DNA of 64,000 bases from a virus (IMGVR_UViG_3300008107_006173); one strand, 5' to 3'. Counted from the first letter of the stretch, positions 8,788 through 55,325 are shown. Notes: generated by a model from the letters alone, not told the origin. Numbers and translations are program-made.

Positions 8788-9522
8788 TTATCTGATGACC
8801 GGTCCTAGGTTCTGCAAAATATCCCAAGTCTCTTCCCAATTCTCAACTTCGTAGCATCTGCTTCCGTTTTGTAGTTGATTTACAGCATCAGCAAGGGGCT
8901 TATCATTGCCGTTATCGTCCATACGATCACCAAAGAATTGTACGATATCTCCCTGCATGTATTTGATACATTGACGCTTATCGCGCCCCTTTGCAGTAAT
9001 ATCTATGCCAATCTCTCCAGCCACTTGGGCTACAATATTATGTAGCTCAAACTGCTCGTTTAGCCTATGTGCTATTTCAATACGCTCATTGCTGATAGCG
9101 TCCCATTCGTGATAGCGTTTTCGCTGCTCTATATTTGCATTTCTTCCCACAGTACTATAGTTGAACATAGCACCGCGATCTTCTATATGATTGCCGTAGC
9201 GTTCTGAATAAACGCTGGAGTTCAATTCATTGTTTAAAAATTCAACAAGTTCCGGCGGATAATCAAATTTGTAATCATAAACAATCTGACCTTTCTTGTA
9301 TACTGTATTCCCCATGCAATTACAGCAGTAGTCCACAGCATCAACAATTTTTTCGCCCAATTGTTCTACAGTCTTTGGCCTATCACTGCCAGTAACTAAT
9401 AAAACAGAACCACCCCAATTTTGAACACCGGCTACCCATGAAAGGAACCAATCTTCAAATTGGGGTGATATTTTTTGTCTGCTGGGCGTCAATGTACCAT
9501 CTACATCAAACGCAAAAAACAT
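8788..9522 (-). CDS. HAD-IIB hydrolase, eukaryote-type phosphomannomutase-like
   Basis: FDVDGTLT, VTGSD, IEDRGAMFNYS.VGR, FFGDRMD..GND. Confidence 0.85.
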   Translation of the reverse strand: MFFAFDVDGTLTPSRQKISPQFEDWFLSWVAGVQNWGGSVLLVTGSDRPKTVEQLGEKIVDAVDYCCNCMGNTVYKKGQIVYDYKFDYPPELVEFLNNELNSSVYSERYGNHIEDRGAMFNYSTVGRNANIEQRKRYHEWDAISNERIEIAHRLNEQFELHNIVAQVAGEIGIDITAKGRDKRQCIKYMQGDIVQFFGDRMDDNGNDKPLADAVNQLQNGSRCYEVENWEETWDILQNLGPVIR

Positions 9523-9525
9523 AGA

Positions 9526-9810
9526 TTACTTCTTTGTCTTTTTTACAGCAGCTTTTGCTTTACCAACAGCCTTTTTTGCGCTGGTCTTGGCCTTCTTAAC
9601 ACCTTCAACAGCGTCACCTAGATCAACCTTGCCATCCTTGTTGAGATCAAGATCTTTCTTGGCTTCTGTCTTTAATGTTTCAACAGCCTTTTCAACGGTT
9701 AAAGATTCTACTGTGTCCTTAACTGAAGCACCACCAACTAGTGTTGTATATGCCCAGTAAAGGATACCAGCAGCCGCTGCCACTAATCCAATTAGTAGTA
9801 ATGTGCTCAT
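9526..9810 (-). CDS. Membrane-anchored protein with EF-hand-like loop and Lys/Ala tail
   Basis: N-terminal TM; DLNKDGKVDLGD; KKAKTSAKKAVGKAKAAVKKTKK. Confidence 0.7.
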   Translation of the reverse strand: MSTLLLIGLVAAAAGILYWAYTTLVGGASVKDTVESLTVEKAVETLKTEAKKDLDLNKDGKVDLGDAVEGVKKAKTSAKKAVGKAKAAVKKTKK

Positions 9811-10742
9811 TTTTCGCTCCTTAGTCTATAGTCAAGTTGTTTGAGACCTTCATATCGAGTCTGGTCTAATGGGTGATCTAAGTTAAAGGGATTAGCCCTC
9901 TTATAAGTAGATCCTTTGACCCTTTCAGCAATAGCATCTAGTATTTTTTTATCTTCTGCTTTTGCACTAACAAGACTGTTACGTCTCATAAATGCAAAAA
10001 GCCCAATATCAAAATGCAGATAACTAAAACCAAATTGGTCTTCGTCACCATTTGCAATACCTAACCCATCTGTAGGTACAGCGGTAATTATGCTCTTTGG
10101 AACCTGCATTAAATTAGCTAGTGCAGGAACTTCCCAGCTTTTAGTTAAACTCTGAATAGGTGCAACATCACCAACATCACCATGTAGCGTCCAAAAGCCT
10201 GCTGCTAGTTCACTGAAGTTGTCAGTACTGGCAACAAAGCCACGATGTACACCTGCAAGGTTGTATAATGTAATCATACGCAATCTTGCTCGTATGTTGC
10301 CCCGGCGCATAGCAATTGATCTATCAGAGCCGGACAATGATGTGTCACTGGTTTCGGAAATATCTTTAACTAAAAATTCATACTGTTTAGTTAAATCAAC
10401 ATTAACATGTTCAATATTCAGTGCATGGCATGCTTCAACCCCGCGGGCTGTTTCTACAGGATCTTGCAAAATTGGTAATGTTACACCAACAACACGATAG
10501 CCTGCTTCGTTGAATAGTGCAGCAGTTAAAGCTGAATCTATTCCGCCACTCATACCGATAACAACAGTACTGGTATTGTATTTGGCTTTATATTCTTCTA
10601 AACCACGAATTAATCGTTCTCTTAGAAGATCTATATCGTTATGATATACACCAAAACCTATAAGTTCAACGAGTTTATTTTTAAACCAGTCAGAAAGTAC
10701 AGGTTGTCTATTGAGTTCTAAAATTTTGTTTAGTGTGTTCAT
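9807..10742 (-). CDS. nadE: NH3-dependent NAD+ synthetase
   Basis: GMSGGIDSA, GNIRARLRM, TDNFSE..AGFWTLHGD, PTDGL. Confidence 0.9.
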   Translation of the reverse strand: MNTLNKILELNRQPVLSDWFKNKLVELIGFGVYHNDIDLLRERLIRGLEEYKAKYNTSTVVIGMSGGIDSALTAALFNEAGYRVVGVTLPILQDPVETARGVEACHALNIEHVNVDLTKQYEFLVKDISETSDTSLSGSDRSIAMRRGNIRARLRMITLYNLAGVHRGFVASTDNFSELAAGFWTLHGDVGDVAPIQSLTKSWEVPALANLMQVPKSIITAVPTDGLGIANGDEDQFGFSYLHFDIGLFAFMRRNSLVSAKAEDKKILDAIAERVKGSTYKRANPFNLDHPLDQTRYEGLKQLDYRLRSEK

Positions 10743-15219: not shown

Positions 15220-16020
15220 TTACCTAATGATTTTATTTTTCTTTACTGCTTGATCAAGCACAGAAAGATCAATTGAGTTTTCTTTGGCATAGGAAAGTAG
15301 ACCTGCTGTATCTTTTGGAAAGCAATGTCCGCCAAAGCCAAACTTACCATCCATTCCTGGTACACGCAAATGGCTATCACCTATGCGTGAATCACGCTGT
15401 AGCATATCTGTGAATTGTTCCCAAGATGAATCTGCACCGCTGGCTTGGTGTAGTTTATGAATTTCATTCATGAATACAACTTTAGTTGCTAGCCAACTGT
15501 TAATTGTATATTTGAGTAAGCTAGCACTTACCATATCTGTCTTAAATGTAGGAACAATCTTTACATGACTAAATTCAACATATGCTCGTTCTACTGCTTC
15601 ACAGTTATTCCAGTGACCTCCTAGAATCTGCATAGGTGGGTTGATGAAGTCGTTGTGTGCATTAGCTTCAGTTAGAAACTCAGGATTGTATACCAATTGC
15701 ACATTATATTGTTGATCAAATCTTGTTAGATGATCAGGTGTAATAGTGCTTTTGATTACAACAATGCCCTGGTAGCCAAACTTATCCAAATCAGATAGTA
15801 CGCCATCTACAATTGATACATCCACAGATCCGTCTGAGCTTTCTGGTGTAGGTACACATACAAATATTAAATGCGGATCGTTTTCTACCATTTGCTGTAG
15901 TGTGACTACAGTCTTCTTTGGGTCAACTACCCACATATCAACATTAGGAGTGTTAAAACCATTAATAACTGCACCGCCAACAAAGCCGCTACCAACTACA
16001 CCTAACTTTAGTTTCATCAT
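15220..16020 (-). CDS. ugd: UDP-glucose/GDP-mannose 6-dehydrogenase (lacks C-terminal domain)
   Basis: GVVGSGFVG, FVCVPTP, IKSTITP, YNPEFLTE, GFGGHCFPKD. Confidence 0.9.
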   Translation of the reverse strand: MMKLKLGVVGSGFVGGAVINGFNTPNVDMWVVDPKKTVVTLQQMVENDPHLIFVCVPTPESSDGSVDVSIVDGVLSDLDKFGYQGIVVIKSTITPDHLTRFDQQYNVQLVYNPEFLTEANAHNDFINPPMQILGGHWNNCEAVERAYVEFSHVKIVPTFKTDMVSASLLKYTINSWLATKVVFMNEIHKLHQASGADSSWEQFTDMLQRDSRIGDSHLRVPGMDGKFGFGGHCFPKDTAGLLSYAKENSIDLSVLDQAVKKNKIIR

Positions 16021-17367: not shown

Positions 17368-17841
17368 CTAGTCCTTGTATCGTTTAGCATTTTCATCCTG
17401 CCATACACGCTCGCGTAGATTACTGCTGCTGAAACTGTGATCTCTGCTGTTGAACACTAGTTCAATTCCACGATCAAAACAAATGTCCTTGCCTGTAAAG
17501 TCTTTGTTAGCGTACTCTACACCCAAGATGCGTACATCAATAGGTAGTGTTAACAGAATGTCTTGTAGGTCTTTTTCTGTTTGGTATACAACAATTTCAT
17601 CTACGAAACGACATGCACTGACCTGTATCTGTCGCTCTAGAATACTCTGAACTGGAGGATTCTTTGAGTCTGGCCTATCAATTGTAGGATCAGTTTGCAG
17701 TCCTACAATTAAGTAGTCGCAGTGATTCTTTGCTTCGCTGAGCATGGCAATATGCCCAGCATGGAATAGATCAAATGTGCTGAATGTAATGCCGATTTTC
17801 TTACCCTCGGCTTTGAGTTGTTTAACTTTGTTGAATATCAT
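17368..17841 (-). CDS. Glycerol-3-phosphate cytidylyltransferase-like (TagD family)
   Basis: TFSTFDLFHAGH (HxGH), VGLQTD, RDHSFSSS. Confidence 0.88.
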   Translation of the reverse strand: MIFNKVKQLKAEGKKIGITFSTFDLFHAGHIAMLSEAKNHCDYLIVGLQTDPTIDRPDSKNPPVQSILERQIQVSACRFVDEIVVYQTEKDLQDILLTLPIDVRILGVEYANKDFTGKDICFDRGIELVFNSRDHSFSSSNLRERVWQDENAKRYKD

Positions 17842-24274: not shown

Positions 24275-25480
24275 TTACTGTAACTTTTTTAAAGCATGTG
24301 TTAATTCTGAACTTAGTTTTTCAAAATCGTTTTCAGTCATATATGGCGCGGTACTAATACGCAACAATCCTTTGGGCGCAAACTTATTAACCAAAGGATG
24401 AGCGCACAGTTTACCTGTGCGTACTGCTACATTGCGTTGACCTAATATAACTGACACATCGCTGGGGTTCAGCGAATTGCTTCTAAATGAAAAGATGCTG
24501 GATTTAGAAACACCAGGAAACAAAGGTTCAAATCCCAGTGCAGACAGTTTATCTTTGATTTCATATTTTATAAAGTAACCGTCTAGATTTCTAATTGCGC
24601 TTTGGATTTCATCATATCCCACATAGTTTATAAACTCAGCAGCAATACCTAAACCTAAAATACCTGCAATGTTTCTAGTGCCAACTTCGTGCTTAGAAAC
24701 ATCTGGGTAGAAAACTAAATTATCAAAACTCACATGTTCGACGCCACCACCGCCAAACATCAAGGGTTTTAGATCAGCGAACCCGCGTCGCGAATACAAT
24801 ATGCCTACTCCGGTAGGACCAAACATTTTGTGGCCGCTGAACACCATATAATCAACAGGAACACTTTTAACATCAATATACTCGTGCATGATGCTTTGAC
24901 ACGCATCTAAGCAGGTATAAATTCCTCTGTTATGAGCTAAACCGATTATTGTTCGCCAATGCTGCTCTACACCTGAAGCATTATGTATGGACGCAATACT
25001 CAGTAATGAACCTGGTTCAGATCGCTCAATCTTAGCATTAGTTTCATCTAGTTCAGTGTGACCATAATGCTCTAGCAACGACAACACAGCTAGACGTTTA
25101 TTTTCAGAGGATCGATTTTGTACCAACCAAGGAACAATATTAGAGTTATGTTCACCTTCGGTTATGATAACTTGGTTAGTAGATTTGTGCCACTGTGCTA
25201 CCATGTTTAGCCCTTCGGTAGCACCTGAGGTAAACATGATTTGTTCTGGTTCAGCGTTTATTAGATCAGCAATACTACGCCGTGCTTGATCAACTTCTGC
25301 TGCTACAAAATCACTCATAGCGAAATCGCTGCGATGTATATTGCAGCGTTCGTGTTCGTAGTAGCGATTCATCCTGTCTAGTACCCATTGATGTGTTTGG
25401 GTACTAGCAGCATTATCAAAATAAGCCAGCTCAGGATTATTTTTTAAAGTAGGAAAAAAGTCCTTGGCAAAAAGTTGCAC
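24275..25480 (-). CDS. sufS: SufS-like cysteine desulfurase
   Basis: YFDNAASTQ, FTSGATE, HNSNIVPW, SGHKMFGPTG, RTGKLCAHPL; GTG start. Confidence 0.9.
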   Translation of the reverse strand: MQLFAKDFFPTLKNNPELAYFDNAASTQTHQWVLDRMNRYYEHERCNIHRSDFAMSDFVAAEVDQARRSIADLINAEPEQIMFTSGATEGLNMVAQWHKSTNQVIITEGEHNSNIVPWLVQNRSSENKRLAVLSLLEHYGHTELDETNAKIERSEPGSLLSIASIHNASGVEQHWRTIIGLAHNRGIYTCLDACQSIMHEYIDVKSVPVDYMVFSGHKMFGPTGVGILYSRRGFADLKPLMFGGGGVEHVSFDNLVFYPDVSKHEVGTRNIAGILGLGIAAEFINYVGYDEIQSAIRNLDGYFIKYEIKDKLSALGFEPLFPGVSKSSIFSFRSNSLNPSDVSVILGQRNVAVRTGKLCAHPLVNKFAPKGLLRISTAPYMTENDFEKLSSELTHALKKLQ

Positions 25481-38855: not shown

Positions 38856-39070
38856 TCGCCAATTGGAAAGTGGTTCTTAAGTGCATCCAGTTTATCTTCA
38901 TATTCTGCAATCTGTGCAAGCTCAAGCTCAATAGCTGTCATGATATCTGTGTGATCATGGATAGCAATTGGGTTGCTTAGGATAACTTCGATGTTCATTT
39001 TATGCTTTTGAATATGAGATTCAAAATGAGCAGCACTTGCTCGGATTAGGTTTTTTCTAAGTAGTTCCAT
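38852..39070 (-). CDS. Hypothetical phage protein
   Basis: 72-aa helical ORF. Confidence 0.7.
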   Translation of the reverse strand: MELLRKNLIRASAAHFESHIQKHKMNIEVILSNPIAIHDHTDIMTAIELELAQIAEYEDKLDALKNHFPIGE

Positions 39071-39839
39071 AATATTCTAACCTTTCGATGTCTTGTTCGT
39101 TAGTTTCGCTGCCATATTGTATTTCAATAATGACTAAATCGTCTTTGCTTTCGTTGTAAAGTTGATGCCATTCGCCTTGCTTTACAATAAAAATATCGTG
39201 CTGATAAATGTCTGTAAGCGAATAGTTATTTAAAGGTTCAGCATCTTTAGAATGTTTAACTACACCCTTACCAGAACGCACAAACCAAACTTCACTACGC
39301 TTAAAATGTCGCTGGTAACTGATGCCTTGACCAGGCTTGACAACAAGTTCCTTGACTTTGCAGCCAGTAGTAGTATAGAGATCTGCAAACTTGCCCCAAA
39401 CACGCTCTTCGGTGTAGTTAGCTAGAGCATCACGCAAGATCCAACTGCTACTGTTTGCTTTATATTCTCCACCAATACCAAACTTGAATTCTATGCCTTC
39501 AACGGACATTTCAGGAATATTTTCTTTAGTACGGTCGCCGCCGTTGCAAAAAATAATCTTATCGTAGGGAAAATGTTTTTTTATTTTTTTCAATCCACTG
39601 ATTGCAGTATTATCAGTATCATCAAAATCTAAAACATGAGCAACATTTTTAAAGTTTTCTAGGATATTCTTTCTTTCAGCATAGGGCATAAAAGGCTTAC
39701 CTTTTTTACGAGTAAGCCATTCATCGCTGTTTAACAAAACAACAACTTGACCAAAGCGAGCAGCATCGTTGATCATAGCAATATGACCACTATGGACAGG
39801 ATCAAATCCTCCACTTACTACCACAATATTCTGAGACAT
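39057..39839 (-). CDS. Cytidylyltransferase fused to type II mannose-6-phosphate isomerase cupin
   Basis: SGGFDPVHSGH, FCNGGDR, KANSSS; then ERVWG, ISYQRHFKRSEVW, GEWHQL, IEIQYG. Confidence 0.9.
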   Translation of the reverse strand: MSQNIVVVSGGFDPVHSGHIAMINDAARFGQVVVLLNSDEWLTRKKGKPFMPYAERKNILENFKNVAHVLDFDDTDNTAISGLKKIKKHFPYDKIIFCNGGDRTKENIPEMSVEGIEFKFGIGGEYKANSSSWILRDALANYTEERVWGKFADLYTTTGCKVKELVVKPGQGISYQRHFKRSEVWFVRSGKGVVKHSKDAEPLNNYSLTDIYQHDIFIVKQGEWHQLYNESKDDLVIIEIQYGSETNEQDIERLEYYGTT

Positions 39840-45166: not shown

Positions 45167-45622
45167 TTAATTACACCAGCTGGTCTTTGCTTCGCCGTAA
45201 TATTCGCGAGCATAGCCTTTTGTGATTAGAAGTTTTCTCAAACTCTGACCATCAATGATAACGTCTCCTAGTACACGACCACCATACTTGTCCCAATCCA
45301 TTAGAACAATTTCTAGCTTCTTAGCATTTGCGATTGAGTCTTTGGTAAATGATGTTGCTGCTTGACCCAACTTATCTTCAGCTGGGCATTTAGCACGGAA
45401 ACTCTTTTCAGGTGTGTCTACACCAAATACTCTGATGCTTAGTTCTTTCTTAAGTGGCGCAGGCAACCAAGGTGCTGCAAACGCAACGGTGTCACCGTCA
45501 ATAACTCTGAGTACAGTTGCATCATAAGTTACACCTGCTTTCTGTTTGCCTTCGCTTACCTGTGCAAATGATGCTGTTGAAGCAAACATTAAAACTAATG
45601 CTGCTGTTAAAAATTTAGTCAT
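45167..45622 (-). CDS. Staphylococcal nuclease-like (SNase) protein with signal peptide
   Basis: RVIDGDTV, IRVFGVDTPE, DKYGGRVLGDV, LITKGYAREY. Confidence 0.92.
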   Translation of the reverse strand: MTKFLTAALVLMFASTASFAQVSEGKQKAGVTYDATVLRVIDGDTVAFAAPWLPAPLKKELSIRVFGVDTPEKSFRAKCPAEDKLGQAATSFTKDSIANAKKLEIVLMDWDKYGGRVLGDVIIDGQSLRKLLITKGYAREYYGEAKTSWCN

Positions 45623-45678: not shown

Positions 45679-46215
45679 TTAACCGTGTCTATAGAAGATA
45701 TGGTTTCCTATATGTGCTGTGCGTACCAACCGTCGCCACCCGGGATTTATTGATCTTTCATGAAAGAACATTGCACCGTTGGTTGGATCCTTTATGATCT
45801 TGTCTATAACAAGTAAAGCAATCTGTAAACTATCCTGCCATCTTTTGTTATACTTTTTGTTTGGTACTATATCTGATCTCCCATCGCATGTCCAACTAAA
45901 TTGACATGTTCTACTAGATCTTTGATATACTACTTTACAAATATCATTTGGATACCGTGGACTTTTTGCGCGATTCAAGGTAACATGAGCTACTGCTGCT
46001 TTACCCTTATCACTTTCACCACCTGCTTCATGATAAATGTTCGTTGCCAAACATAGAAGCTCTCGACGATCTTCGTGTGTTTCTTTATTAATTGCAACTA
46101 GATTTTCATGACTAGGTGCTGCTGCTAACGCATTAGTTGACGCAAATAAAACTCCAATGGTTAAAGCCGCGACAACATCTCTAATGGTTAGACTAATGCC
46201 TTGTTTAAGGGACAT
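45679..46215 (-). CDS. SleB-type cell wall hydrolase (Hydrolase_2)
   Basis: CLATNIYHEAGGE, VTLNR, CQFSWTCDG, GAMFFH, IGNHIFY. Confidence 0.93.
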   Translation of the reverse strand: MSLKQGISLTIRDVVAALTIGVLFASTNALAAAPSHENLVAINKETHEDRRELLCLATNIYHEAGGESDKGKAAVAHVTLNRAKSPRYPNDICKVVYQRSSRTCQFSWTCDGRSDIVPNKKYNKRWQDSLQIALLVIDKIIKDPTNGAMFFHERSINPGWRRLVRTAHIGNHIFYRHG

Positions 46216-46585: not shown

Positions 46586-47119
46586 TTATCCTTTGTAAAA
46601 AATGTGACGACCAATTTTTGTGATCTTCTTTTTGTTCCAATTTGGATTTACATAGTCTGCATGATAGTAGAGCGCATTTGAAAGTGACTCTAGTTTAAAG
46701 TTTTCTACATAAACCATTTTTGCAACTTTATAACTTTCTTCATATAGATTCTCATCTATAACTCTTGTTCTATGACGACGGTCACAGTACCAGCTAAACT
46801 GGCAAACAACTCGCCCCACGAACTTGTTCTTTTGATAAACTACCCCACATACAGTATTGGGGAAATCAGGACTTTTAGTGCGGTTAAGTGTTACTTGTGC
46901 AACACCCACCTTTCCTTCAAAAGGTTCATTGGCCGCTTCTCTATAAATGTTTATAGCAAGACAGTCTAGATCTTTTTCAATTTGTTCAGCAGTTGCACCG
47001 CTGAAGTTGGGTTTTTCAAAAGATGCAAATTTAACTGATGTTATAACACCTGTTAATAAAATCACAAACATCAATCCCATTACTAAGATGATACTGTGCA
47101 TCGAATGTTTCATCATCAT
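46586..47119 (-). CDS. SleB-type cell wall hydrolase with N-terminal TM
   Basis: CLAINIYREAANE, CQFSWYC, YYHADYVNP.W, IGRHIFY. Confidence 0.93.
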   Translation of the reverse strand: MMMKHSMHSIILVMGLMFVILLTGVITSVKFASFEKPNFSGATAEQIEKDLDCLAINIYREAANEPFEGKVGVAQVTLNRTKSPDFPNTVCGVVYQKNKFVGRVVCQFSWYCDRRHRTRVIDENLYEESYKVAKMVYVENFKLESLSNALYYHADYVNPNWNKKKITKIGRHIFYKG

Positions 47120-47717: not shown

Positions 47718-47845
47718 GTGTGAACAGATACATGTGAGTCTAACAAGTAAGAACAACCGCGTCCCTCTTAGTATACGCTATATAGTGCAACAGAACTGCA
47801 CAGACTGTTCGCAAAGTTGGATATGGTAGGCGCCTACCATATCAT
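47718..47845 (+). ncRNA. Candidate structured small RNA ending in a perfect 24-bp palindrome
   Basis: TTAAATA upstream; GUGAACAG/CUGUUCGC closing helix; GUGCA/UGCAC hairpin; GATATGGTAGGCGCCTACCATATC. Confidence 0.4.
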
Positions 47846-47881: not shown

Positions 47882-48631
47882 TTACAGTACTATCGTTTCC
47901 TCTTTGATATTCACTGGAATATCAAACTTACCAGCAATTTGCCTCATTGCATCTACTCTAGATGTTGTATCTCTACTGCTGTGTAAGTGAATTATATTAG
48001 CATCATCCAATTTACAATTATTCCATTCCTCCGCAAAAGGAATGTTTAGATTAAAAATCTGAAAAGCCATTTTTGGATCGTGTACTTCAGATACATCCAA
48101 TCCTTGACTCCATAGTTGATAGTTGTGAATTAACTGTCCCCAACTCCAATCATTTTCTGCATGAGTGAACCACTTATCCATAAGTCTTTCACCTAAATCC
48201 CAAACCTGCGGATTCATCTCTGCAGGATAGTATCTGACATCATCGTTAAAATAATGAGGCATTTCTTCATGTGTTTTTGGGTCAGTATAATTAAACATCA
48301 TCATGTTATTATATCTACCAAATACTTCTGTGGGTTTGAGGAACATGGTATCTGCACCCATACACAGAATATTGCAGGGCTCCTTATGCCATAGTTCTTT
48401 GATCATGTACCAATGTGCTATCTGATACGCTCTAGAATCTAATACAGGAGCAGTGAATTTAATTTCTTCCCACTCACCGTCCAAGTAGGTTGTTGCGCTG
48501 CTTCGGCTAATAGCATACATATTTTCATAGTCGATGAGATCTCGTTCAGCTCTAGGATTGTCACCTGTGCCTTTCCAATAACCCCAGTGTTTGATAATTG
48601 GGCGCACCGCGCCAATAAGATAATTTTTCAT
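47882..48631 (-). CDS. Putative GT-A nucleotide-sugar transferase
   Basis: ILCMGADTMFLKP DxD-like strand, IIHLHSSR; last gene of sugar operon. Confidence 0.5.
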   Translation of the reverse strand: MKNYLIGAVRPIIKHWGYWKGTGDNPRAERDLIDYENMYAISRSSATTYLDGEWEEIKFTAPVLDSRAYQIAHWYMIKELWHKEPCNILCMGADTMFLKPTEVFGRYNNMMMFNYTDPKTHEEMPHYFNDDVRYYPAEMNPQVWDLGERLMDKWFTHAENDWSWGQLIHNYQLWSQGLDVSEVHDPKMAFQIFNLNIPFAEEWNNCKLDDANIIHLHSSRDTTSRVDAMRQIAGKFDIPVNIKEETIVL

Positions 48632-48635
48632 AGTT

Positions 48636-49586
48636 TCACCAAATAAAGTTTTCTTTGTAATATTTTACAATATTCACAAGCTCGTCGTCAAAGTTAGCTT
48701 TTGGTAACCAACCTAACTGTTTGATTTTAGAATCATCAATTGCGTATCTAACATCTTGCCCAGGGCGTTCGTAGTTGGTATCCAAGTATTGGTCTGCATC
48801 GCCTGGGAGACCTAAGAGGTTTATAATCTTTCTTGCAACTACAATATTTTGTTCTTCAAAGGTTCCTGAAATGTTGTAAATTTCATTCGTCACGCCTTTT
48901 TCAATTATTGTTATTACCGCTGATGCAGTATCGCTGGCGTGAAGCCAAGTTCTGCGTGGGGTGCCTTTATTGTGCAGCAAAACCTTCTTGCCTAGTGTTA
49001 GATACTTGATAGCGTGAGGGATAAACTTTTCAGTGTATTGACCAATGCCGTAATTGTTTGTTGGTCTGACAATTACATATGGTAAATTATATGTTCTTGC
49101 CCACGCAATAACCAACATGTCGGCTGCTGCTTTTGTTGCACTATAAGGATTGCTGGGTTTTAATAGATCAGTTTCTTTATGAAAACCCTGATCTAAATCG
49201 CCATACACTTCATCTGTACTAAAATGTAGTAGTACAGGTGTCTTTTTTCTACCACTTATTTTTGTTCTAATAAGTTCTAAAATATTATGTACGCCACTAA
49301 TGTTGCTGTCTACAAATTCAGAACTACTAACAATGCTGTTATCCACATGAGTTTCTGCGGCTGTGTTAATAAAATAGTCGCAGTCATAGATCATTGTTAG
49401 TTCATTAATATCTTTGTTTTCAAATTTGAAGTTCTTATAAGAAAGCAAATCATCAAGTAGATTCCAATTAGCAGCATAGGTACCTTTATCAATACCACAT
49501 ACATACCAACCTTTTTCTAAACAAGATTTCGCAACATGATATCCAATGAATCCTAAACATCCTGTAACATAAACAGTTTTATACAT
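48636..49586 (-). CDS. NDP-glucose 4,6-dehydratase (RfbB-like SDR)
   Basis: VTGCLGFIG, AAETHVDNS, STDEVYG, PSNPYSATK, RPGQDVRY. Confidence 0.92.
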   Translation of the reverse strand: MYKTVYVTGCLGFIGYHVAKSCLEKGWYVCGIDKGTYAANWNLLDDLLSYKNFKFENKDINELTMIYDCDYFINTAAETHVDNSIVSSSEFVDSNISGVHNILELIRTKISGRKKTPVLLHFSTDEVYGDLDQGFHKETDLLKPSNPYSATKAAADMLVIAWARTYNLPYVIVRPTNNYGIGQYTEKFIPHAIKYLTLGKKVLLHNKGTPRRTWLHASDTASAVITIIEKGVTNEIYNISGTFEEQNIVVARKIINLLGLPGDADQYLDTNYERPGQDVRYAIDDSKIKQLGWLPKANFDDELVNIVKYYKENFIW

Positions 49587-50523
49587 AAAGCCAATCCTGA
49601 TTGTTCAAATACCAGTTTACAGTCTGTTCGAGTCTTTGCTGATGGGAGTATGGTGCGATCCAACCTCTTTCGTAGAACTTATGTGGGTCCACTGAAAAGC
49701 ATAGATCGTGTCCAGGCCTATCAACTGGTATAAAGTTATAATTTAGTGTTCTACCCATTATGTCTGCTATGTTATTGGCGAACTCAAAATTATCAATAAA
49801 CTTGTAGCCTGCACTATTCCATTTTTCACACAGGGCTGTTTGTTCTCTAATTACAAAGTCCGTGTGACTAGCAACGTCCCCTGCATAGAACCACCGGCGG
49901 CCACCTATTTGATTTTCTTTACCCACATGAATATCTAAGCATTCGTTGTTGAGCAGTTTTTTAATAATAATCGTAGGTAATCTATTTGGCTGGCACATTG
50001 GGCCAAATGTATTATTAATATGTATGATGCTCACAGGCAAATTATAGGTATGTGAATAACTTACACAAAGTTCTTCGCCAGCAGCTTTTGAGGCTGCATA
50101 AGGGCTGTTGGACCGATACGCATCGTCAGCGTCACTATCATTACCAATTGGTATTGGGCCAAACACTTCACCTGAACTGTAATATACAAATTTCTTAAGA
50201 TTAATTTGTCGTGCTAGTTCTAATAGATTCAATGTTCCTATTACATTATCTAGAACAGATTCAACAGGTGCGCTAATACTATCAGCAGCACTTGGATTTG
50301 CTCCAGCATGTAAAATAATATCTATGTCTTTAAATACACTTAAATCGTAAGGGTCTCTGATATTATGTTCAACTATTTTGATCTTATCAGAGAACTGTGC
50401 AATTCTTTTTAGATTTTTTGTTCCTGGTCGAACCAAACAGATAACATTATTATTTTCATAAAATTGTTCAACTAGGTAACGACCTATAAATCCTGTTGCG
50501 CCTGTAATTAGTATGTTATTCAT
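49579..50523 (-). CDS. NAD-dependent epimerase/dehydratase
   Basis: ITGATGFIG, SSGEVFG, SPYAASK, RPGHD. Confidence 0.9.
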   Translation of the reverse strand: MNNILITGATGFIGRYLVEQFYENNNVICLVRPGTKNLKRIAQFSDKIKIVEHNIRDPYDLSVFKDIDIILHAGANPSAADSISAPVESVLDNVIGTLNLLELARQINLKKFVYYSSGEVFGPIPIGNDSDADDAYRSNSPYAASKAAGEELCVSYSHTYNLPVSIIHINNTFGPMCQPNRLPTIIIKKLLNNECLDIHVGKENQIGGRRWFYAGDVASHTDFVIREQTALCEKWNSAGYKFIDNFEFANNIADIMGRTLNYNFIPVDRPGHDLCFSVDPHKFYERGWIAPYSHQQRLEQTVNWYLNNQDWLYV

Positions 50524-51151
50524 TGTGATGCACATAAACTAGGTCGGTCGCATGTGTTGCTACATGCTTATATCCATACCGGTCTAGGAAAGACTGAATC
50601 ATTTCAAATTTAACACCATATCGCTGAGCCCATGGTGCGTGCCATTCTATAGAAAGAACTGGTTTAAACTTATTAATTGTTTGTTCTGCACCTAACAAGC
50701 CAAAATATTCATAACCTTCAGTGTCTAGTTGTATTAAGTCACAACGATCAAGTTCTAGGTCATCAATTTTAAATGTTGGTATAGTCCCCATGCCGTGAAC
50801 ATGAGTTGCACCGACATCGTGTGCATGATGATTTAATGCTATAAATCTGTGTGCGTCGCCTACAGCAGCATTGAATTTTACAACATTAGGATAATCACAA
50901 TTCATCGACAATGCTAAAAAGTTCAATGGCTCTGGCTCAAATGTGTAAACTCTTTCAAACTTCTCTGCATACTTACGAATGTAAAATCCAGCGTTGCCAC
51001 CTGCTTGCACAACAACTTTTCGTTCTGGAACATGTGTGCAGAGATTGTCAACAACATCGCTATGCTGATGCATATAATTCCAGCAACCTTGGTCTCCCAT
51101 AGGCCACCACCAATCATCTCGCTTTTCTAGTTTATCAATAAGTCTATTCAC
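50516..51151 (-). CDS. FkbM-family methyltransferase
   Basis: VVQAGGNAG, YTFEPEP.N, DLIQLDTEGYE..LLGA. Confidence 0.9.
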   Translation of the reverse strand: MNRLIDKLEKRDDWWWPMGDQGCWNYMHQHSDVVDNLCTHVPERKVVVQAGGNAGFYIRKYAEKFERVYTFEPEPLNFLALSMNCDYPNVVKFNAAVGDAHRFIALNHHAHDVGATHVHGMGTIPTFKIDDLELDRCDLIQLDTEGYEYFGLLGAEQTINKFKPVLSIEWHAPWAQRYGVKFEMIQSFLDRYGYKHVATHATDLVYVHHNE

Positions 51152-51153
51152 AG

Positions 51154-51633
51154 CTAAGTCCTTTTAATGTTTAGATAGCAAGGTTCATTACTGTAGATAA
51201 ACTCGTGCCAGATACTTCTTAATTCTTCTTCGCTGTTAGGTTTGTAAATCTTGATATTAGGAAACGCCTTTAAAGCATCTTCATCATCTACAGCCCAATG
51301 GCTAAATCCTAAGTGCCCGTAATCTTTATCTCGGCCACTGCCTACAAGTTTTACTGGTGCACCTTCGTGATCGAGATAGTTTCTCAACCATTCGTATGGC
51401 CTAAAAATCACAAACGGAGTAATACTATAGCAAACGGGAATTTTGCCGTTATGTGTAAGACCCACAGCAGTTCCTAGCATTAGCTGTTCAGCAGCACCAA
51501 CATTAAATGTTCTGTCGGGTGCTACTTCTCTGCTTTTGTTTAGTACACCAAAGCCCAAATCACCTGTTAGGAGGTAAACATTATTATCATTGGCTAATGT
51601 TTCAGCCATCAATTGTCCAAAAAGATTTCTCAT
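51154..51633 (-). CDS. Transketolase pyrimidine-binding domain protein
   Basis: LTGDLG, FNVGAAEQLMLG.A.GL, GFSHWAVDD, PCYL. Confidence 0.9.
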   Translation of the reverse strand: MRNLFGQLMAETLANDNNVYLLTGDLGFGVLNKSREVAPDRTFNVGAAEQLMLGTAVGLTHNGKIPVCYSITPFVIFRPYEWLRNYLDHEGAPVKLVGSGRDKDYGHLGFSHWAVDDEDALKAFPNIKIYKPNSEEELRSIWHEFIYSNEPCYLNIKRT

Positions 51634-52238
51634 AGTTTATCTAAATCCTCAGGCTTTAAAACATAATAATGTGTTAGTACACCTTCTGCAAAAGGCCACT
51701 TTGGTGGCTCAGTGTTACGAATGTTGATCCGCGGCAGGAACGCCCGTAACCTATTGTTGATATAATCTCTATCAATCATATCGTAGGCAATCATTCCGTT
51801 CACATTAGCGTAGACTTCTAAGTTATCTAACTTTGCTTCATAGATAAATCGTAGTGCTTCCCAAATAGAACCTTCTCCGCACTCACCGTCACTGATAAGG
51901 CAATGTACTTTACGATCTCTATTAGCTAGAGCGTAGCCTGTTGCTACAGTAAGACCCATGCCCAAACTACCTGTGGAGCAATGAATACCATCTTCTAAGC
52001 AACGATGTGGGTGTACACCGTGCTTGTGGAAAAGTTCCACTGCATCGCGACCTTCATACTTTTCTTGAACTACATACATTGCAAGAGCGGCATGACCCGA
52101 GCTTAAAATAAAAGGTTCGTCTGGTTGCTTTAATGAATAAATCTCATCAATTATATTAACAGCATTGAGTGTAGAACTAAGATGTCCTATCTTCTCTTTA
52201 AAGCTGATATCTATAATTCGTTGCTCTAATTGGTTCAC
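51630..52238 (-). CDS. Transketolase N-terminal (ThDP-binding) protein
   Basis: GHLSS, LSSGHAA, TGSLGMG, ISDGECGEGSIWEA. Confidence 0.9.
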   Translation of the reverse strand: MNQLEQRIIDISFKEKIGHLSSTLNAVNIIDEIYSLKQPDEPFILSSGHAALAMYVVQEKYEGRDAVELFHKHGVHPHRCLEDGIHCSTGSLGMGLTVATGYALANRDRKVHCLISDGECGEGSIWEALRFIYEAKLDNLEVYANVNGMIAYDMIDRDYINNRLRAFLPRINIRNTEPPKWPFAEGVLTHYYVLKPEDLDKL

Positions 52239-53557
52239 GTAAATGCCCTCATAAACTCATCAACCTTCTCACCAATGTAGTTAATTTGTTCTTCTGTAAT
52301 CACAGGGCTTGTGCCGTGGAAGAAAGTATTTGTTAGAGAGAATGTTGCATTTGGAAAATTATTCTTAGCTTCCATTGGATCCATCAAGTGACTGTAAGCA
52401 GGTTGTAACATAATGTTGCCTGCAAAATATGGTCGTGTTTGAATCAAGTTATCTTCTAAGTGTTCAACTAACTGTGTTCTGCTAAAAGGAGCAGACTTTC
52501 TAATTGTTAGCGGGAAGGCAAACCAACTTGGATTACTGTGTTCTCTTGCTCGTGGCAGATGGAAAAATTCTTCATACTTTTCGTAAACCTTAAACAACAG
52601 ATTATAATTTTCTCTGCGTCTAGCATGAATCTCATCTAGCTTCTCTAGCTGTTTCAATCCCATAGCACTTTGCATTTCAATTGGCTTTAGATTGTAACCA
52701 ATTTCATCATACACATACTTGTGGTCAAAGATTTCATCGGGCATGGTAGGAATCCAATTGTTGAATCGCTTACCACAAGTTCCCTTCTTTAGTTTATTTG
52801 CATGAGGACCAACGCAATAACAGCCGCGACCCCATTCACGGAAACTCCGTAGAATAACTTCTTGTTCTTTTGTGTTAGAAGCCACGAAACCGCCTTCGCC
52901 CATTGTCATGTGGTGCGCTGGATAAAAACTACAGCTAGCCATTTCACCAAAGCTACCAAGTGGTCGATCCTTATATGTACTGCCTAGTGCATCACAACAA
53001 TCTTCTAGTAATACAAGATTATACTTGTTAACTAATTCCATTAGCTGATCCATGTTAGGTGGGTTACCTAGTACATGGGCAAATGTAATAACCTTAATAT
53101 CAGGATCATTTGCAAGAACACGCTCACAATGGTCCAAATCAATGTTTAGAGTCTCGAGCTCAATGTCAACAAAAACAGGAGTAAAGCCTACTTGAAGTGT
53201 TGGATTGAGTGTGGTTGGAAAACCTGCAATAGGCATCAATACTTTAGTGCCTTTAGGGAAATTATAACCTCGCTTACTGGTAAGCGAAGACATCATTAGC
53301 AGGTTGCTGCTACTACCGCTGTTGGTTAGAATACCAAATTCTTTGCCAAACTGTTTTGGAAACTTTCTTTCAAATAAGATACTCTTATTACCCATTACCA
53401 ACCAACCGTCGAGTAATGTTTCAGCAGCAGCAACTATTTCTTCTGCATCAAAAAATGGACCTGCGTAATTTACAAAATCTTTACCCGGGGTCCAAGTCTT
53501 ATCAGCATTGCGCTGCTCAATAAAGGTACGAATTTGTGCAAGGATTTCTTGTTTCAT
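52235..53557 (-). CDS. rfbH: CDP-4-keto-6-deoxyglucose 3-dehydrase (RfbH/DdhC, E1)
   Basis: FAHVLGNP, EDCCDALGS, SFYPAHHMTMGEGG (His in place of PLP Lys), WGRGCYC...TCGKRF...DHKY. Confidence 0.9.
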   Translation of the reverse strand: MKQEILAQIRTFIEQRNADKTWTPGKDFVNYAGPFFDAEEIVAAAETLLDGWLVMGNKSILFERKFPKQFGKEFGILTNSGSSSNLLMMSSLTSKRGYNFPKGTKVLMPIAGFPTTLNPTLQVGFTPVFVDIELETLNIDLDHCERVLANDPDIKVITFAHVLGNPPNMDQLMELVNKYNLVLLEDCCDALGSTYKDRPLGSFGEMASCSFYPAHHMTMGEGGFVASNTKEQEVILRSFREWGRGCYCVGPHANKLKKGTCGKRFNNWIPTMPDEIFDHKYVYDEIGYNLKPIEMQSAMGLKQLEKLDEIHARRRENYNLLFKVYEKYEEFFHLPRAREHSNPSWFAFPLTIRKSAPFSRTQLVEHLEDNLIQTRPYFAGNIMLQPAYSHLMDPMEAKNNFPNATFSLTNTFFHGTSPVITEEQINYIGEKVDEFMRAFT

Positions 53558-53610
53558 GTTTTTCCTGTGATGTGTTTTTTAAGTTTAAATATTTATCAGA
53601 TGTTTTTATT

Positions 53611-54281: not shown

Positions 54282-55325
54282 TCAGTGACTTTGGACTTTT
54301 TGTTTTTCATGTTCATATAGTGCATGGCTAGCAAGGTTCTTGGCCTTGCTTTCGCACATGATATCAAACTGATCTCGGAATGTAAGGGCCCAGTCATTTA
54401 CTGCGCGATTCCAATAATAGTCGCTGTGTGCGCGAAGTTTTGCTTTCTTGTAACCTTGTTCTAGCAATGTGTCAAGATCGGGTCGAGTGTCCCTACAGTG
54501 GTCTGCGAGCAGGTCTTCCCTGCTAACTGAGTAATGAATAACAGGACGCACGCCGCGCCAACTATCAATAACCCGTTTAACGCGATCGTCATTAGCTTCA
54601 ATGTATTCTCCATTTCTAATCCAGTGGTGGTGAATGTCTAACACCAACGCACAGTGGTCTACTAGTTCTAGGCTCGAATTGAGACCCCAGGACATTTCGT
54701 CGTTTTCGATTGTGAGGGTGTTTCTTGCTTCGGTGCTGAGTCTTGGGATAACTCGCTTGATACCTTCGGGGCCTTGGCGACCCGCGATGTGGACGTTGAT
54801 CTTAAAGTCCTGAAACGAACGACCATACCCCATCCATCTCGCCATATCTGCATGATACTCGAACTCCTCTATGCTACGCTCAACAATACCTGGTGTATCG
54901 CTTGCAAGTACACAAAATTGTCCGGGGTGGAAACTAAGACGGACTCCGGTTCTGCGAGCAAGGTCGCCAATAGTAGAAAAACGATGTACCAAAACGTCAA
55001 CGATATCATTACGACGCCAAAAATAACTCCAACTAGGCTCAGTATAAACGGGAAGAATATCACTGCCAAGACGCACCATGCGCCGATCCTTAGGTAACGA
55101 TGCAACATATTCAACTAATCTCCTTGCGGATTCTGTGTTGTGTATCATAATATCCCATAGACGCTGTTCCGCTACATCTCGGGTCTGACGATTAAGCCAA
55201 GCAACTGTGGTTGATTTGGTGTTTAGGGGACGCTGTAATTCCTCTAAAACTTTTTTAGATAGGGTTTGATCGTCGTGCATATATTTACACGCAAATCCAA
55301 TTCTTTTTGTAGAATTATCAAACAT
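54282..55325 (-). CDS. uvsE: UV-damage endonuclease UvsE/UvdE
   Basis: RIGFACK, VRLSFHPGQF, KINVHIAG, IENDE, LDIHHH, HYSVSR, RAHSD, MCESKAKNLA. Confidence 0.93.
   Translation of the reverse strand: MFDNSTKRIGFACKYMHDDQTLSKKVLEELQRPLNTKSTTVAWLNRQTRDVAEQRLWDIMIHNTESARRLVEYVASLPKDRRMVRLGSDILPVYTEPSWSYFWRRNDIVDVLVHRFSTIGDLARRTGVRLSFHPGQFCVLASDTPGIVERSIEEFEYHADMARWMGYGRSFQDFKINVHIAGRQGPEGIKRVIPRLSTEARNTLTIENDEMSWGLNSSLELVDHCALVLDIHHHWIRNGEYIEANDDRVKRVIDSWRGVRPVIHYSVSREDLLADHCRDTRPDLDTLLEQGYKKAKLRAHSDYYWNRAVNDWALTFRDQFDIMCESKAKNLASHALYEHEKQKVQSH

Follow-up and report, generated by a model that had tools for sequence, protein, structure and literature searches.

Operon Layout and Gene Content

The DNA analysed is a stretch of 64,000 nt from the virus IMGVR_UViG_3300008107_006173, referred to below as the window. 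Seven open reading frames (ORFs) lie in tight coupling on its minus strand between 47,882 and 53,557, with adjoining ends that overlap or stand no more than 4 nt apart. In order of transcription they encode an RfbH homologue, a 202-aa transketolase (TK)-like half (mini-TK alpha), a 159-aa pyrimidine-binding (Pyr) half (mini-TK beta), an FkbM-family methyltransferase, two short-chain dehydrogenases/reductases (SDR1 and SDR2) and a protein of 249 aa (orf249). RfbH overlaps mini-TK alpha by 4 nt, as does mini-TK alpha with mini-TK beta, and 2 nt separate mini-TK beta from FkbM. The FkbM and SDR1 genes overlap by 20 nt and the two SDR genes by 8 nt, while SDR2 and orf249 are 4 nt apart. The region had been read from its sequence as a late operon for a branched 3,6-dideoxy sugar (the original prediction). 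The coupled gene run of that prediction was found in full, with all seven ORFs in place on the minus strand.

A Minimal Two-Gene Transketolase-Like Enzyme

The two genes after RfbH correspond to the halves of a thiamine diphosphate (ThDP) enzyme. Mini-TK alpha (51,630–52,238, minus strand) is the ThDP diphosphate-binding (PP) half. It matched PF13292 and PF00456 weakly and the split transketolase 6YAK with 52 bits, compared to 49 bits for human TK and about 24 bits for DXS. Mini-TK beta (51,154–51,633, minus strand) is the Pyr half and has no TK C-terminal domain. It matched PF02779 with 70 bits and 6YAJ with 60 bits. A transketolase N-domain and a bare Pyr domain of 159 aa had been predicted as separate genes and this was confirmed. 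PHROGs assigned no function to either half.

The ThDP-Mg motif S116-D117-G118...N147 of mini-TK alpha and the cofactor-activating Glu49 of mini-TK beta are invariant across the family. The invariant residues of the alpha half are H19, H49, S88, S91, L92, D117, G118, N147, and Y191, and those of the beta half are R2, E49, R78, E81, R84, R101, and H112. H19, H49, and H76 align with TK His26, His66, and His100, the C-terminal H190-Y191 is kept, and His112 of the beta half is equivalent to TK His473. Changes were found in the acceptor site, where alignment to 6YAJ, as distinct from superposition of structures, placed Gly at S385, Gly100 at H461, and Leu108 at D469. The equivalents of E. coli TK R358 and R520 are kept in mini-TK beta as R2 and R158, and R78, R84, and R101 are invariant arginines that are new compared to TK. 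Mutation of S385, D469, or R520 in E. coli TK shifts its specificity off phosphorylated aldehydes (PMC5073344).

An exhaustive search for relatives of mini-TK alpha, clustered at 50% identity, gave 113 clusters below 1e-30, with lengths almost always of 200–230 aa. In a word-indexed search with clustering at 90% identity, the phage clade comprised about 3,000 clusters, each of 202 aa. The Pyr partner was 155–175 aa in 66 of 66 in-family loci and about 310 aa only in three distant outgroups. The PP half is about 200–230 aa family-wide compared to about 280 aa in split TKs. Because these small sizes are family-wide, the C-terminal domain and about 80 PP residues have been lost as a family trait and not by truncation in the phage. 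Against the NCBIfam transketolase equivalogs, with a cut-off of 488 bits, the halves scored 81.5 and 53 bits. The name transketolase used in the original prediction therefore fails on domain content, on equivalog score and on the acceptor-site residues (S385, H461, and D469), and from its sequence the pair should not be called a transketolase. No paper on the mini-TK family or on a phage pathway of this kind was found in the literature searched.

The two halves were predicted to form a complex, with a score of 0.87 compared to 0.00 for the best control. Among solved complexes 58 of 80 attained the mark set for this score, compared to 2 of 110 mismatched pairs. These counts apply only roughly here, as the alignments were made for this analysis. 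Contact agreement between runs was at least 97% and partner pLDDT at least 92. The predicted interface lies between the ThDP-motif region of the PP half and the part of the Pyr half around Glu49. The modelling supports pairing of mini-TK alpha and beta, although the like complex 6YAK is solved and the pass may reflect that likeness.

Cellular genomes were scanned using an alignment of 7 mini-TK sequences. The halves adjoin in 69 of 70 cellular loci, some of them on megabase contigs. The loci are mostly from Patescibacteria and uncultured Gammaproteobacteria. These pairs are found in glycan clusters, beside nucleoside diphosphate (NDP)-sugar SDR, methyltransferase, GT2, and membrane glycosyltransferase genes. 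In one family member (P0204, on an ENA contig) the PP half is fused to Methyltransf_24 and followed by a 169-aa Pyr half, with four other methyltransferases and an SDR around it. Since most cellular pairs do not stand beside RfbH, some family members use an acceptor other than a 3,6-dideoxy sugar, and keto sugars in general are probably what the family accepts. Leu is present at the TK Asp469 position in 23 in-family loci, 22 of which have an E1-type RfbH within 2.8 kb, while most family members without RfbH keep Asp. Leu108 may fit an acceptor without a 3-OH and so mark specificity for 3-deoxy acceptors, this pattern coming from few independent lineages and being read from sequence alignment.

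Displacement of ThDP Enzymes in Sister Phages

A set of 80 viral loci with RfbH orthologs at 72–97% identity was compared. This synteny check over related viruses had been suggested with the original prediction, and it revealed a swap of ThDP enzymes next to RfbH. The position right after RfbH is occupied by the mini-TK pair in 20 of the 80 loci, by a YerE/JanthE-like enzyme in 23 and by a miniature pyruvate dehydrogenase (PDH) E1 alpha/beta pair in one. Two ThDP types never occurred together (0/80; hypergeometric P for zero TK/YerE overlap = 3e-4, uncorrected for phylogeny). All three versions begin a few bases from the RfbH stop and are followed by SDR1 orthologs. FkbM comes after the ThDP genes in the TK loci and in many YerE loci.

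The YerE-like genes are either whole (597 aa, L039) or split (342 + 247 aa, L032) and have the acetolactate-synthase fold. In both loci the domain order is Pyr-M-PP (PF02776/PF00205/PF02775), whereas the pair in the window has PP then Pyr, the TK order. The L039 enzyme scored 422 bits to JanthE (8RPH), a YerE-like lyase that has been characterised and accepts ketones, compared to at most 230 bits to acetolactate synthases. A plasmid search with the YerE-like protein gave no matches beyond ordinary genes of the ilvB/ilvG type, about 30% identical. In L028 the segment 9,330–10,489, directly after RfbH and before an SDR1 ortholog, encodes a 207-aa E1_dh protein (PF00676) and a 178-aa Transket_pyr protein (PF02779). 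This pair matches PDH E1 alpha and beta shortened to PP and Pyr only.

The clearest swap is between L068 (TK) and L056 (YerE). Their DNA is collinear at 83–94% identity and the sole non-homologous segment is that of the ThDP genes (L068, 9,308–10,460; L056, 9,308–11,182). In maximum-likelihood trees the TK label requires a minimum of three changes for SDR1 and six for RfbH. The SDR1 of L069 (TK) is sister to that of L062 (YerE) with support of 100/100. Keto-sugar branching is established or proposed for three classes of ThDP enzyme, namely YerE-like lyases, E1-type alpha-keto acid dehydrogenases and, as a proposal only, transketolases (PMC12247030). By gene content and homology, all three classes alternate at a single slot of the phage cassette, which we read as non-orthologous displacement. 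It is mainly because of this displacement at the RfbH-adjacent slot that the branching step is given to the mini-TK pair. The three-way displacement and the near-isogenic swap are new here.

Other features of the sister loci were recorded. In L039 (4,011–6,552) the YerE/JanthE-like enzyme is followed by an HpcH/HpaI aldolase, as in ErwE/ErwI. Steitz et al. accounted for the longer branch of erwiniose by the aldolase ErwI feeding ErwE (PMC9306805), and by analogy some sister phages may make erwiniose-like sugars with longer (C4+) branches. L019 (5,991–10,716; also L015–L026) has no ThDP enzyme and encodes UvdE, an SDR, RfbH, an orf249-like glycosyltransferase and a sulfotransferase-like protein (PF03567). 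The product of such a cassette may be an unbranched 3,6-dideoxy sugar that is sulfated. An NAD synthase (PF02540) lies a few kb 3′ of the cassette in many sister phages (L032, 13,664–14,416, and 14 other loci). The NAD synthase of the window is at 9,807–10,742, far from the operon.

The RfbH Homologue

RfbH (52,235–53,557, minus strand) is a 440-aa homologue of the E1/RfbH-type NDP-4-keto-6-deoxyhexose 3-dehydrases, of the type that uses pyridoxamine phosphate (PMP) and a [2Fe-2S] cluster. It scored 452.5 bits against the NCBIfam RfbH equivalog NF011936, for which the cut-off is 423. The closest solved structure is Yersinia E1 (3BCX; 343 bits across residues 2–436), with the DegT/AAT fold. In the alignment His215 falls in the column of E1 His220, the site of the H220K mutant 3BB8. 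The Fe-S cysteines are C188-X57-C246-X-C248-X12-C261. The claims that His occupies the position of the pyridoxal phosphate lysine and that the Fe-S ligand pattern is retained were thus borne out (His215; Cys188/246/248/261). The His and all four cysteines (CCCC) are kept in every phage ortholog checked. Replacement of Lys by His and the four cysteines for [2Fe-2S] set E1 and SpnQ apart from aminotransferases and ColD (PMC8987622).

No E3-like (Fer2/FAD/NAD) reductase was matched in the operon by Pfam or NCBIfam profiles. The lack of E3 and of RfbF among the operon proteins agrees with the original prediction. It had treated the missing E3 as a gap, which needs no explanation given that general reductase pairs, with ferredoxin or flavodoxin, serve SpnQ, an E1-type enzyme whose substrate is a dTDP-sugar (PMC8987622). 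On this precedent host electron carriers would suffice and a dedicated E3 is not obligatory. Elsewhere in the window (24,275–25,480) is a gene for a SufS-type cysteine desulfurase of PHROG 12787, which bears the sufS annotation in jumbo phages of Acinetobacter and Microcystis. The desulfurase could help to load Fe-S clusters into RfbH and the radical-SAM enzymes of the phage.

The FkbM Protein, SDR1, SDR2, and orf249

The FkbM-family methyltransferase (50,516–51,151, minus strand) is 211 aa in length (PF05050, 53 bits; TIGR01444, 49.6 bits). Its orthologs come after either ThDP type (TK or YerE) in sister phages. Profiles of Pfam and NCBIfam confirmed the earlier FkbM and SDR calls. SDR1 (49,579–50,535, minus strand; 318 aa) is an extended SDR of the reductase/epimerase type, with GxxGxxG, Y146xxxK and SSGEVFG replacing the TDE dyad. 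Its best similarity was to dehydratase/epimerase-type SDRs, in a comparison that did not contain YerF. Orthologs of SDR1 at 50% identity or above are restricted to loci with a ThDP enzyme, save three short contigs. These three end before the site where a sibling contig shows the ThDP enzyme. By analogy with YerF, SDR1 is proposed to be a branch-carbonyl reductase.

SDR2 (48,636–49,586, minus strand; 316 aa) is an RmlB-like NDP-hexose 4,6-dehydratase with S-T124-D125-E126-VYG and Y148xxxK152. It scored 290 bits against TIGR01181 compared to 63 bits against the CDP-type TIGR02622, and up to 217 bits to dTDP-glucose 4,6-dehydratases in the PDB. The CDP route named in the original prediction is not implied by a dehydratase of this kind.

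orf249 (47,882–48,631, minus strand) had no Pfam, NCBIfam, or PHROG match. Its AF2 model (pLDDT 89.6, pTM 0.88) points to a soluble GT-A glycosyltransferase with a GT8/glycogenin-like fold. The best Foldseek match was glycogenin (probability 1.0, E 2e-6, TM 0.54–0.56), and the A64R domain of PBCV-1, which glycosylates the capsid, was matched with a TMt of 0.63. The predicted glycosyltransferase of the operon was therefore assigned by modelled fold and not by sequence family. The invariant residues G92-A-D94-T95, N129/D131, and H215 resemble the DADT and His ligands of GT8, with a single Asp of the DxD motif. Conservation of orf249 next to RfbH extends to 57 viral loci.

Promoter-Like Motif, Distribution, and Neighboring Genes

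The TATTTAT motif reported ahead of the operon was located at 53,590. It forms part of the promoter-like motif GATAAATA (53,590–53,597, minus strand), which matches the T4 late consensus TATAAATA at 7 of 8 positions, and the RfbH start is 33 nt downstream. In T4-type late promoters TATAAATA lies about 10 nt before the transcription start. A TATAAATA-type motif is present 25–35 nt 5′ of the RfbH start in relatives where RfbH heads the operon. TATAAATA, GATAAATA, or TGTAAATA was found at matching distance in L003, L005, L007, L009, L014, and L019, in which the flanks have diverged, and the exact TATAAATA occupies the matching place in four relatives. As the motif is kept at a fixed distance while the surrounding DNA has diverged, a genuine late-type promoter 5′ of RfbH is favored. 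TATTTAT/ATAAATA is not enriched in the window, with 5 + 9 copies compared to about 16 per strand expected from a rough base-composition estimate. Generic sigma-70 and terminator scans of the window gave signal at or near shuffle level.

A perfect 24-bp palindrome (47,820–47,843) lies 39 nt 3′ of orf249 and opens a 330-nt gap free of ORFs. This palindrome is a possible 3′ boundary of the operon. Its T-run is on the plus strand only, so a terminator role for the minus-strand operon is uncertain.

Near-identical copies of the operon are present in 17 or more DNA runs, which come from about 15 freshwater/lake studies. No match to cultured phage records was obtained with the operon by megablast. 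Contigs from three RNA libraries (lake and river water) had 92–99% identity to RfbH, both TK halves, FkbM, SDR2, and orf249. These contigs are short, patchy and strandless, are without 5′ ends and may come from DNA carry-over, and they say nothing on expression or timing.

Just 3′ of the operon are the genes of two paralogous cell-wall hydrolases of the SleB type (PF07486, endolysin PHROGs) at 45,679–46,215 and 46,586–47,119. An SNase-like nuclease is encoded further downstream at 45,167–45,622. Directly upstream of the operon is a UvdE/UvsE UV-damage endonuclease (54,282–55,325), which is syntenic with RfbH in many relatives at 58–89% identity.

Candidate Sugar Activation Genes

No RmlA/RfbF/DdhA-type nucleotidyltransferase was matched in the operon by Pfam or NCBIfam profiles. 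Among five related viral records an NTP_transferase match was seen in only two and was weak. The best candidate for the sugar-1-phosphate activating enzyme, as judged from sequence and linkage, is NT157 (17,368–17,841, minus strand), a small PF01467 nucleotidyltransferase of 157 aa. Its best NCBIfam match was rfaE_dom_II with 79.9 bits. RfaE domain II is a sugar-1-phosphate adenylyltransferase. Orthologs of NT157 at 71–74% identity lie 5–7 kb from RfbH in eight sister loci (among L050–54, L056, L062, L068, and L076). An ortholog at 55% identity stands immediately before the dehydratase in sugar islands of Synechococcus myophages. Dispersed cytidylyltransferases had been put forward as suppliers of the operon. 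The gene at 17,368 fits this role through its RfbH-linked orthologs, but it is closest to the RfaE-II adenylyltransferase, and for that reason the nucleotide may not be CDP.

The second of these genes (39,057–39,839, minus strand) encodes a PF01467 nucleotidyltransferase fused to a cupin of the mannose-6-phosphate isomerase (PMI) type and may be a front-end enzyme of the operon. L028 encodes a PMI-like cupin after its SDR2 ortholog. The window also encodes a phosphomannomutase (8,788–9,522) and a truncated-looking UDP-Glc/GDP-Man dehydrogenase-like protein (15,220–16,020). These scattered genes could feed the operon or other glycan islands of the phage. A mannose-based front end was considered and is only a guess, since the phosphomannomutase, the UDP-sugar dehydrogenase and the nucleotidyltransferase-PMI fusion are not linked to the cassette in relatives. 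The sole such linkage was one partial match to the fusion in L019.

Proposed Pathway and Alternative Explanations

Taken together, the genes probably encode a late-expressed pathway to a nucleotide-activated C-branched 3,6-dideoxyhexose. SDR2 with its TDE dyad, RfbH, the mini-TK pair and SDR1 within a single operon form a yersiniose-type gene set, in which branching is the role we infer for the mini-TK pair. Most likely the pair adds a two-carbon branch to an NDP-4-keto-3,6-dideoxyhexose. The pathway would be of a known kind with an enzyme family new to it, a view supported in its core. An NDP-hexose would be supplied by the RfaE-II-like NT157 or by the host. By its family and catalytic motif, SDR2 would oxidise and dehydrate this to the NDP-4-keto-6-deoxyhexose. 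RfbH, on the grounds of family and residues, would strip the 3-OH via PMP and [2Fe-2S] to give the NDP-4-keto-3,6-dideoxyhexose, with electrons presumably supplied, as in SpnQ, by ferredoxin/flavodoxin reductases of the host. The mini-TK proteins, as a minimal PP+Pyr ThDP enzyme, would then add a C2 acyl anion onto the C4 ketone to give a tertiary alcohol. The branch unit could be hydroxyacetyl, if the donor is a ketol, or acetyl, if it is pyruvate. These donors are indistinguishable by sequence as the conserved His is common to TK and DXS. Pyruvate is accepted by some wild-type split TKs (PMC13663882). The branch carbonyl would be reduced by SDR1, as by YerF, and the sugar may be O-methylated by FkbM. 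That nearly identical SDR1 proteins serve both TK- and YerE-type cassettes hints at similar products.

In a last step the soluble GT-A protein orf249 may move the sugar onto an acceptor. Genes for a flippase, a polymerase, or a polyprenyl-phosphate transferase are absent from the operon. Together with a soluble GT8-like glycosyltransferase and a late-type promoter, this would make a protein of phage or host a somewhat better fit than a lipid-linked glycan. Of the C4-branched, possibly O-methylated 3,6-dideoxy sugar of the original prediction, the branch gains support from displacement at the ThDP slot, and the O-methyl group is suggested by FkbM.

Several points weigh against this pathway. The displacement shows a shared pathway position and not an identical product. 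The mini-TK family is known from sequence alone, and the full-size split TKs proposed for miharamycin and amipurimycin are likewise uncharacterised (PMC12247030). RfbH was found without any ThDP enzyme in 36 of the 80 viral loci, making branching optional, and the cellular mini-TK pair is near RfbH in only about 9 of 70 loci. The 3-deoxygenation relies on an assumed host reductase, and no Fer2 (PF00111) protein was matched in five related viral records, two of which are 91–92% complete.

Some of these points would also suit a pathway that ends in an unbranched 3,6-dideoxyhexose, where SDR1 is the 4-ketoreductase and the mini-TK pair performs other chemistry on the nucleotide sugar or a co-substrate (branching or ketol transfer at C3 following isomerisation, or making or decarboxylation of a keto-acid for use elsewhere). 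The many loci with RfbH, dehydratase and glycosyltransferase but no ThDP enzyme indicate that the core works unbranched, most cellular pairs are not linked to RfbH, and SDR1 is closest to dehydratase/epimerase-type SDRs. This outcome is nevertheless unlikely. After 4,6-dehydration and 3-deoxygenation the C4 ketone is the sole electrophilic carbon, and the pair is replaced exactly by YerE-like enzymes, which are known for C4 branching. The co-occurrence of SDR1 orthologs only with a ThDP enzyme fits a branch reductase better than a 4-ketoreductase.

That the RfbH homologue instead acts as a 4-aminotransferase and yields a 4-amino-4,6-dideoxy sugar is very improbable. SpnQ does transaminate if no reductase is supplied (PMC8987622), and an E3/Fer2 protein was found neither in the operon nor in the near-complete relatives, but host ferredoxin/flavodoxin systems are ubiquitous. 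The His for the catalytic Lys, the four Fe-S cysteines in every phage ortholog checked and a score above the RfbH equivalog cut-off also oppose it, and the ThDP enzyme conserved downstream would find no ketone on an amino sugar. Least probable of all is an auxiliary metabolic transketolase shifting host pentose-phosphate flux (sedoheptulose-7-P, nucleotide precursors), for although the best Pfam, NCBIfam, and PDB matches are transketolases and the R358/R520 equivalents (R2, R158) are retained, 81.5 bits is far from the 488-bit equivalog cut-off, the C-terminal domain and about 80 PP residues are absent family-wide, S385, H461, and D469 are substituted, the YerE-like and E1-like enzymes that interchange with the pair are not of the pentose-phosphate pathway, and the pair is always inside glycan clusters.

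With branching by the mini-TK pair as the favored explanation, a wider proposal can be offered tentatively, as a real possibility. Widespread minimal two-domain TK-like carboligases with NDP-keto-sugar acceptors may be a third natural route of sugar C-branching. By exchanging them at one slot for YerE-like or mini-E1 enzymes, giant phages would vary a branched, methylated deoxysugar, which a soluble glycogenin-like glycosyltransferase would place late in infection on phage or host proteins. If true, such phages would encode a glycan coat varied by cassette. The findings suggest that phages switch their glycan chemistry in a modular way, with virion shielding, receptor masking and defence evasion as candidate purposes. 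They also point to undescribed branched sugars of abundant freshwater/marine giant phages and ultra-small bacteria. Ketone-accepting ThDP enzymes that form chiral tertiary alcohols are sought-after biocatalysts. The mini-TK family is small (about 360 aa in total) and very abundant, and the near-isogenic phages with a YerE-like enzyme at the matching place are a natural control. A 2025 review listed 13 candidate TK-type enzymes of this kind, all from Streptomyces, with none characterised or solved (PMC12247030).

Comparison With Known Systems

The closest known systems are CDP-yersiniose A of Y. pseudotuberculosis (DdhA–D, YerE, and YerF) and erwiniose/caryophyllose/gastriose (ErwE, MMAR_2332, and MygE). 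Sister phages have genuine YerE/JanthE-like enzymes at the slot, one with an aldolase as in the erwiniose cluster. The ThDP enzyme of the window is a two-gene PP+Pyr member of the TK superfamily, whereas YerE is a Pyr-M-PP flavoenzyme of the decarboxylase family. The phage set differs further from that of yersiniose in its RmlB-like rather than CDP-type dehydratase, in being without E3 and without an RmlA/DdhA-type enzyme, in the added FkbM and in its phage host.

RfbH shares the DegT fold, the Lys-to-His change and the four-cysteine [2Fe-2S] motif with both E1 (DdhC/AscC/RfbH) and SpnQ. The spacing before the last cysteine is X12, in contrast to the C-X57-C-X-C-X7-C pattern of E1. Like SpnQ, RfbH is without a dedicated E3, and the partner dehydratase is dTDP-type in both.

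For both mini-TK halves the closest solved relative is the split transketolase of Carboxydothermus hydrogenoformans (6YAK/6YAJ). The PP/Pyr split is equal and the predicted phage complex has the equivalent ThDP-forming interface. The 6YAK/6YAJ subunits are about 280 and 310 aa with a C-terminal domain and canonical substrate residues, which the phage pair does not have.

Split-gene transketolases have been proposed for the hydroxyacetyl branch of miharamycin/amipurimycin in 13 Streptomyces biosynthetic gene clusters (PMC12247030). They are likened here by description: both are two-gene enzymes of the TK superfamily in a sugar pathway with a keto-sugar acceptor proposed. The phage pair is smaller (202 + 159 aa), with no TK C-terminal domain and an altered acceptor site. 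Mini-TK genes are found in glycan clusters of phage, Patescibacteria, and Gammaproteobacteria, whereas the miharamycin/amipurimycin TKs are from actinomycete antibiotic clusters.

The alpha-keto acid dehydrogenase-2 E1 enzymes of aldgarose/avilamycin/kibdelomycin (KbDH-alpha/beta) are also heteromeric PP+Pyr enzymes and place a C2 branch on a deoxy-keto sugar. They belong to the PF00676 E1_dh subfamily while the enzyme of the window is TK-like. A KbDH-alpha/beta-like miniature sits in the slot of L028.

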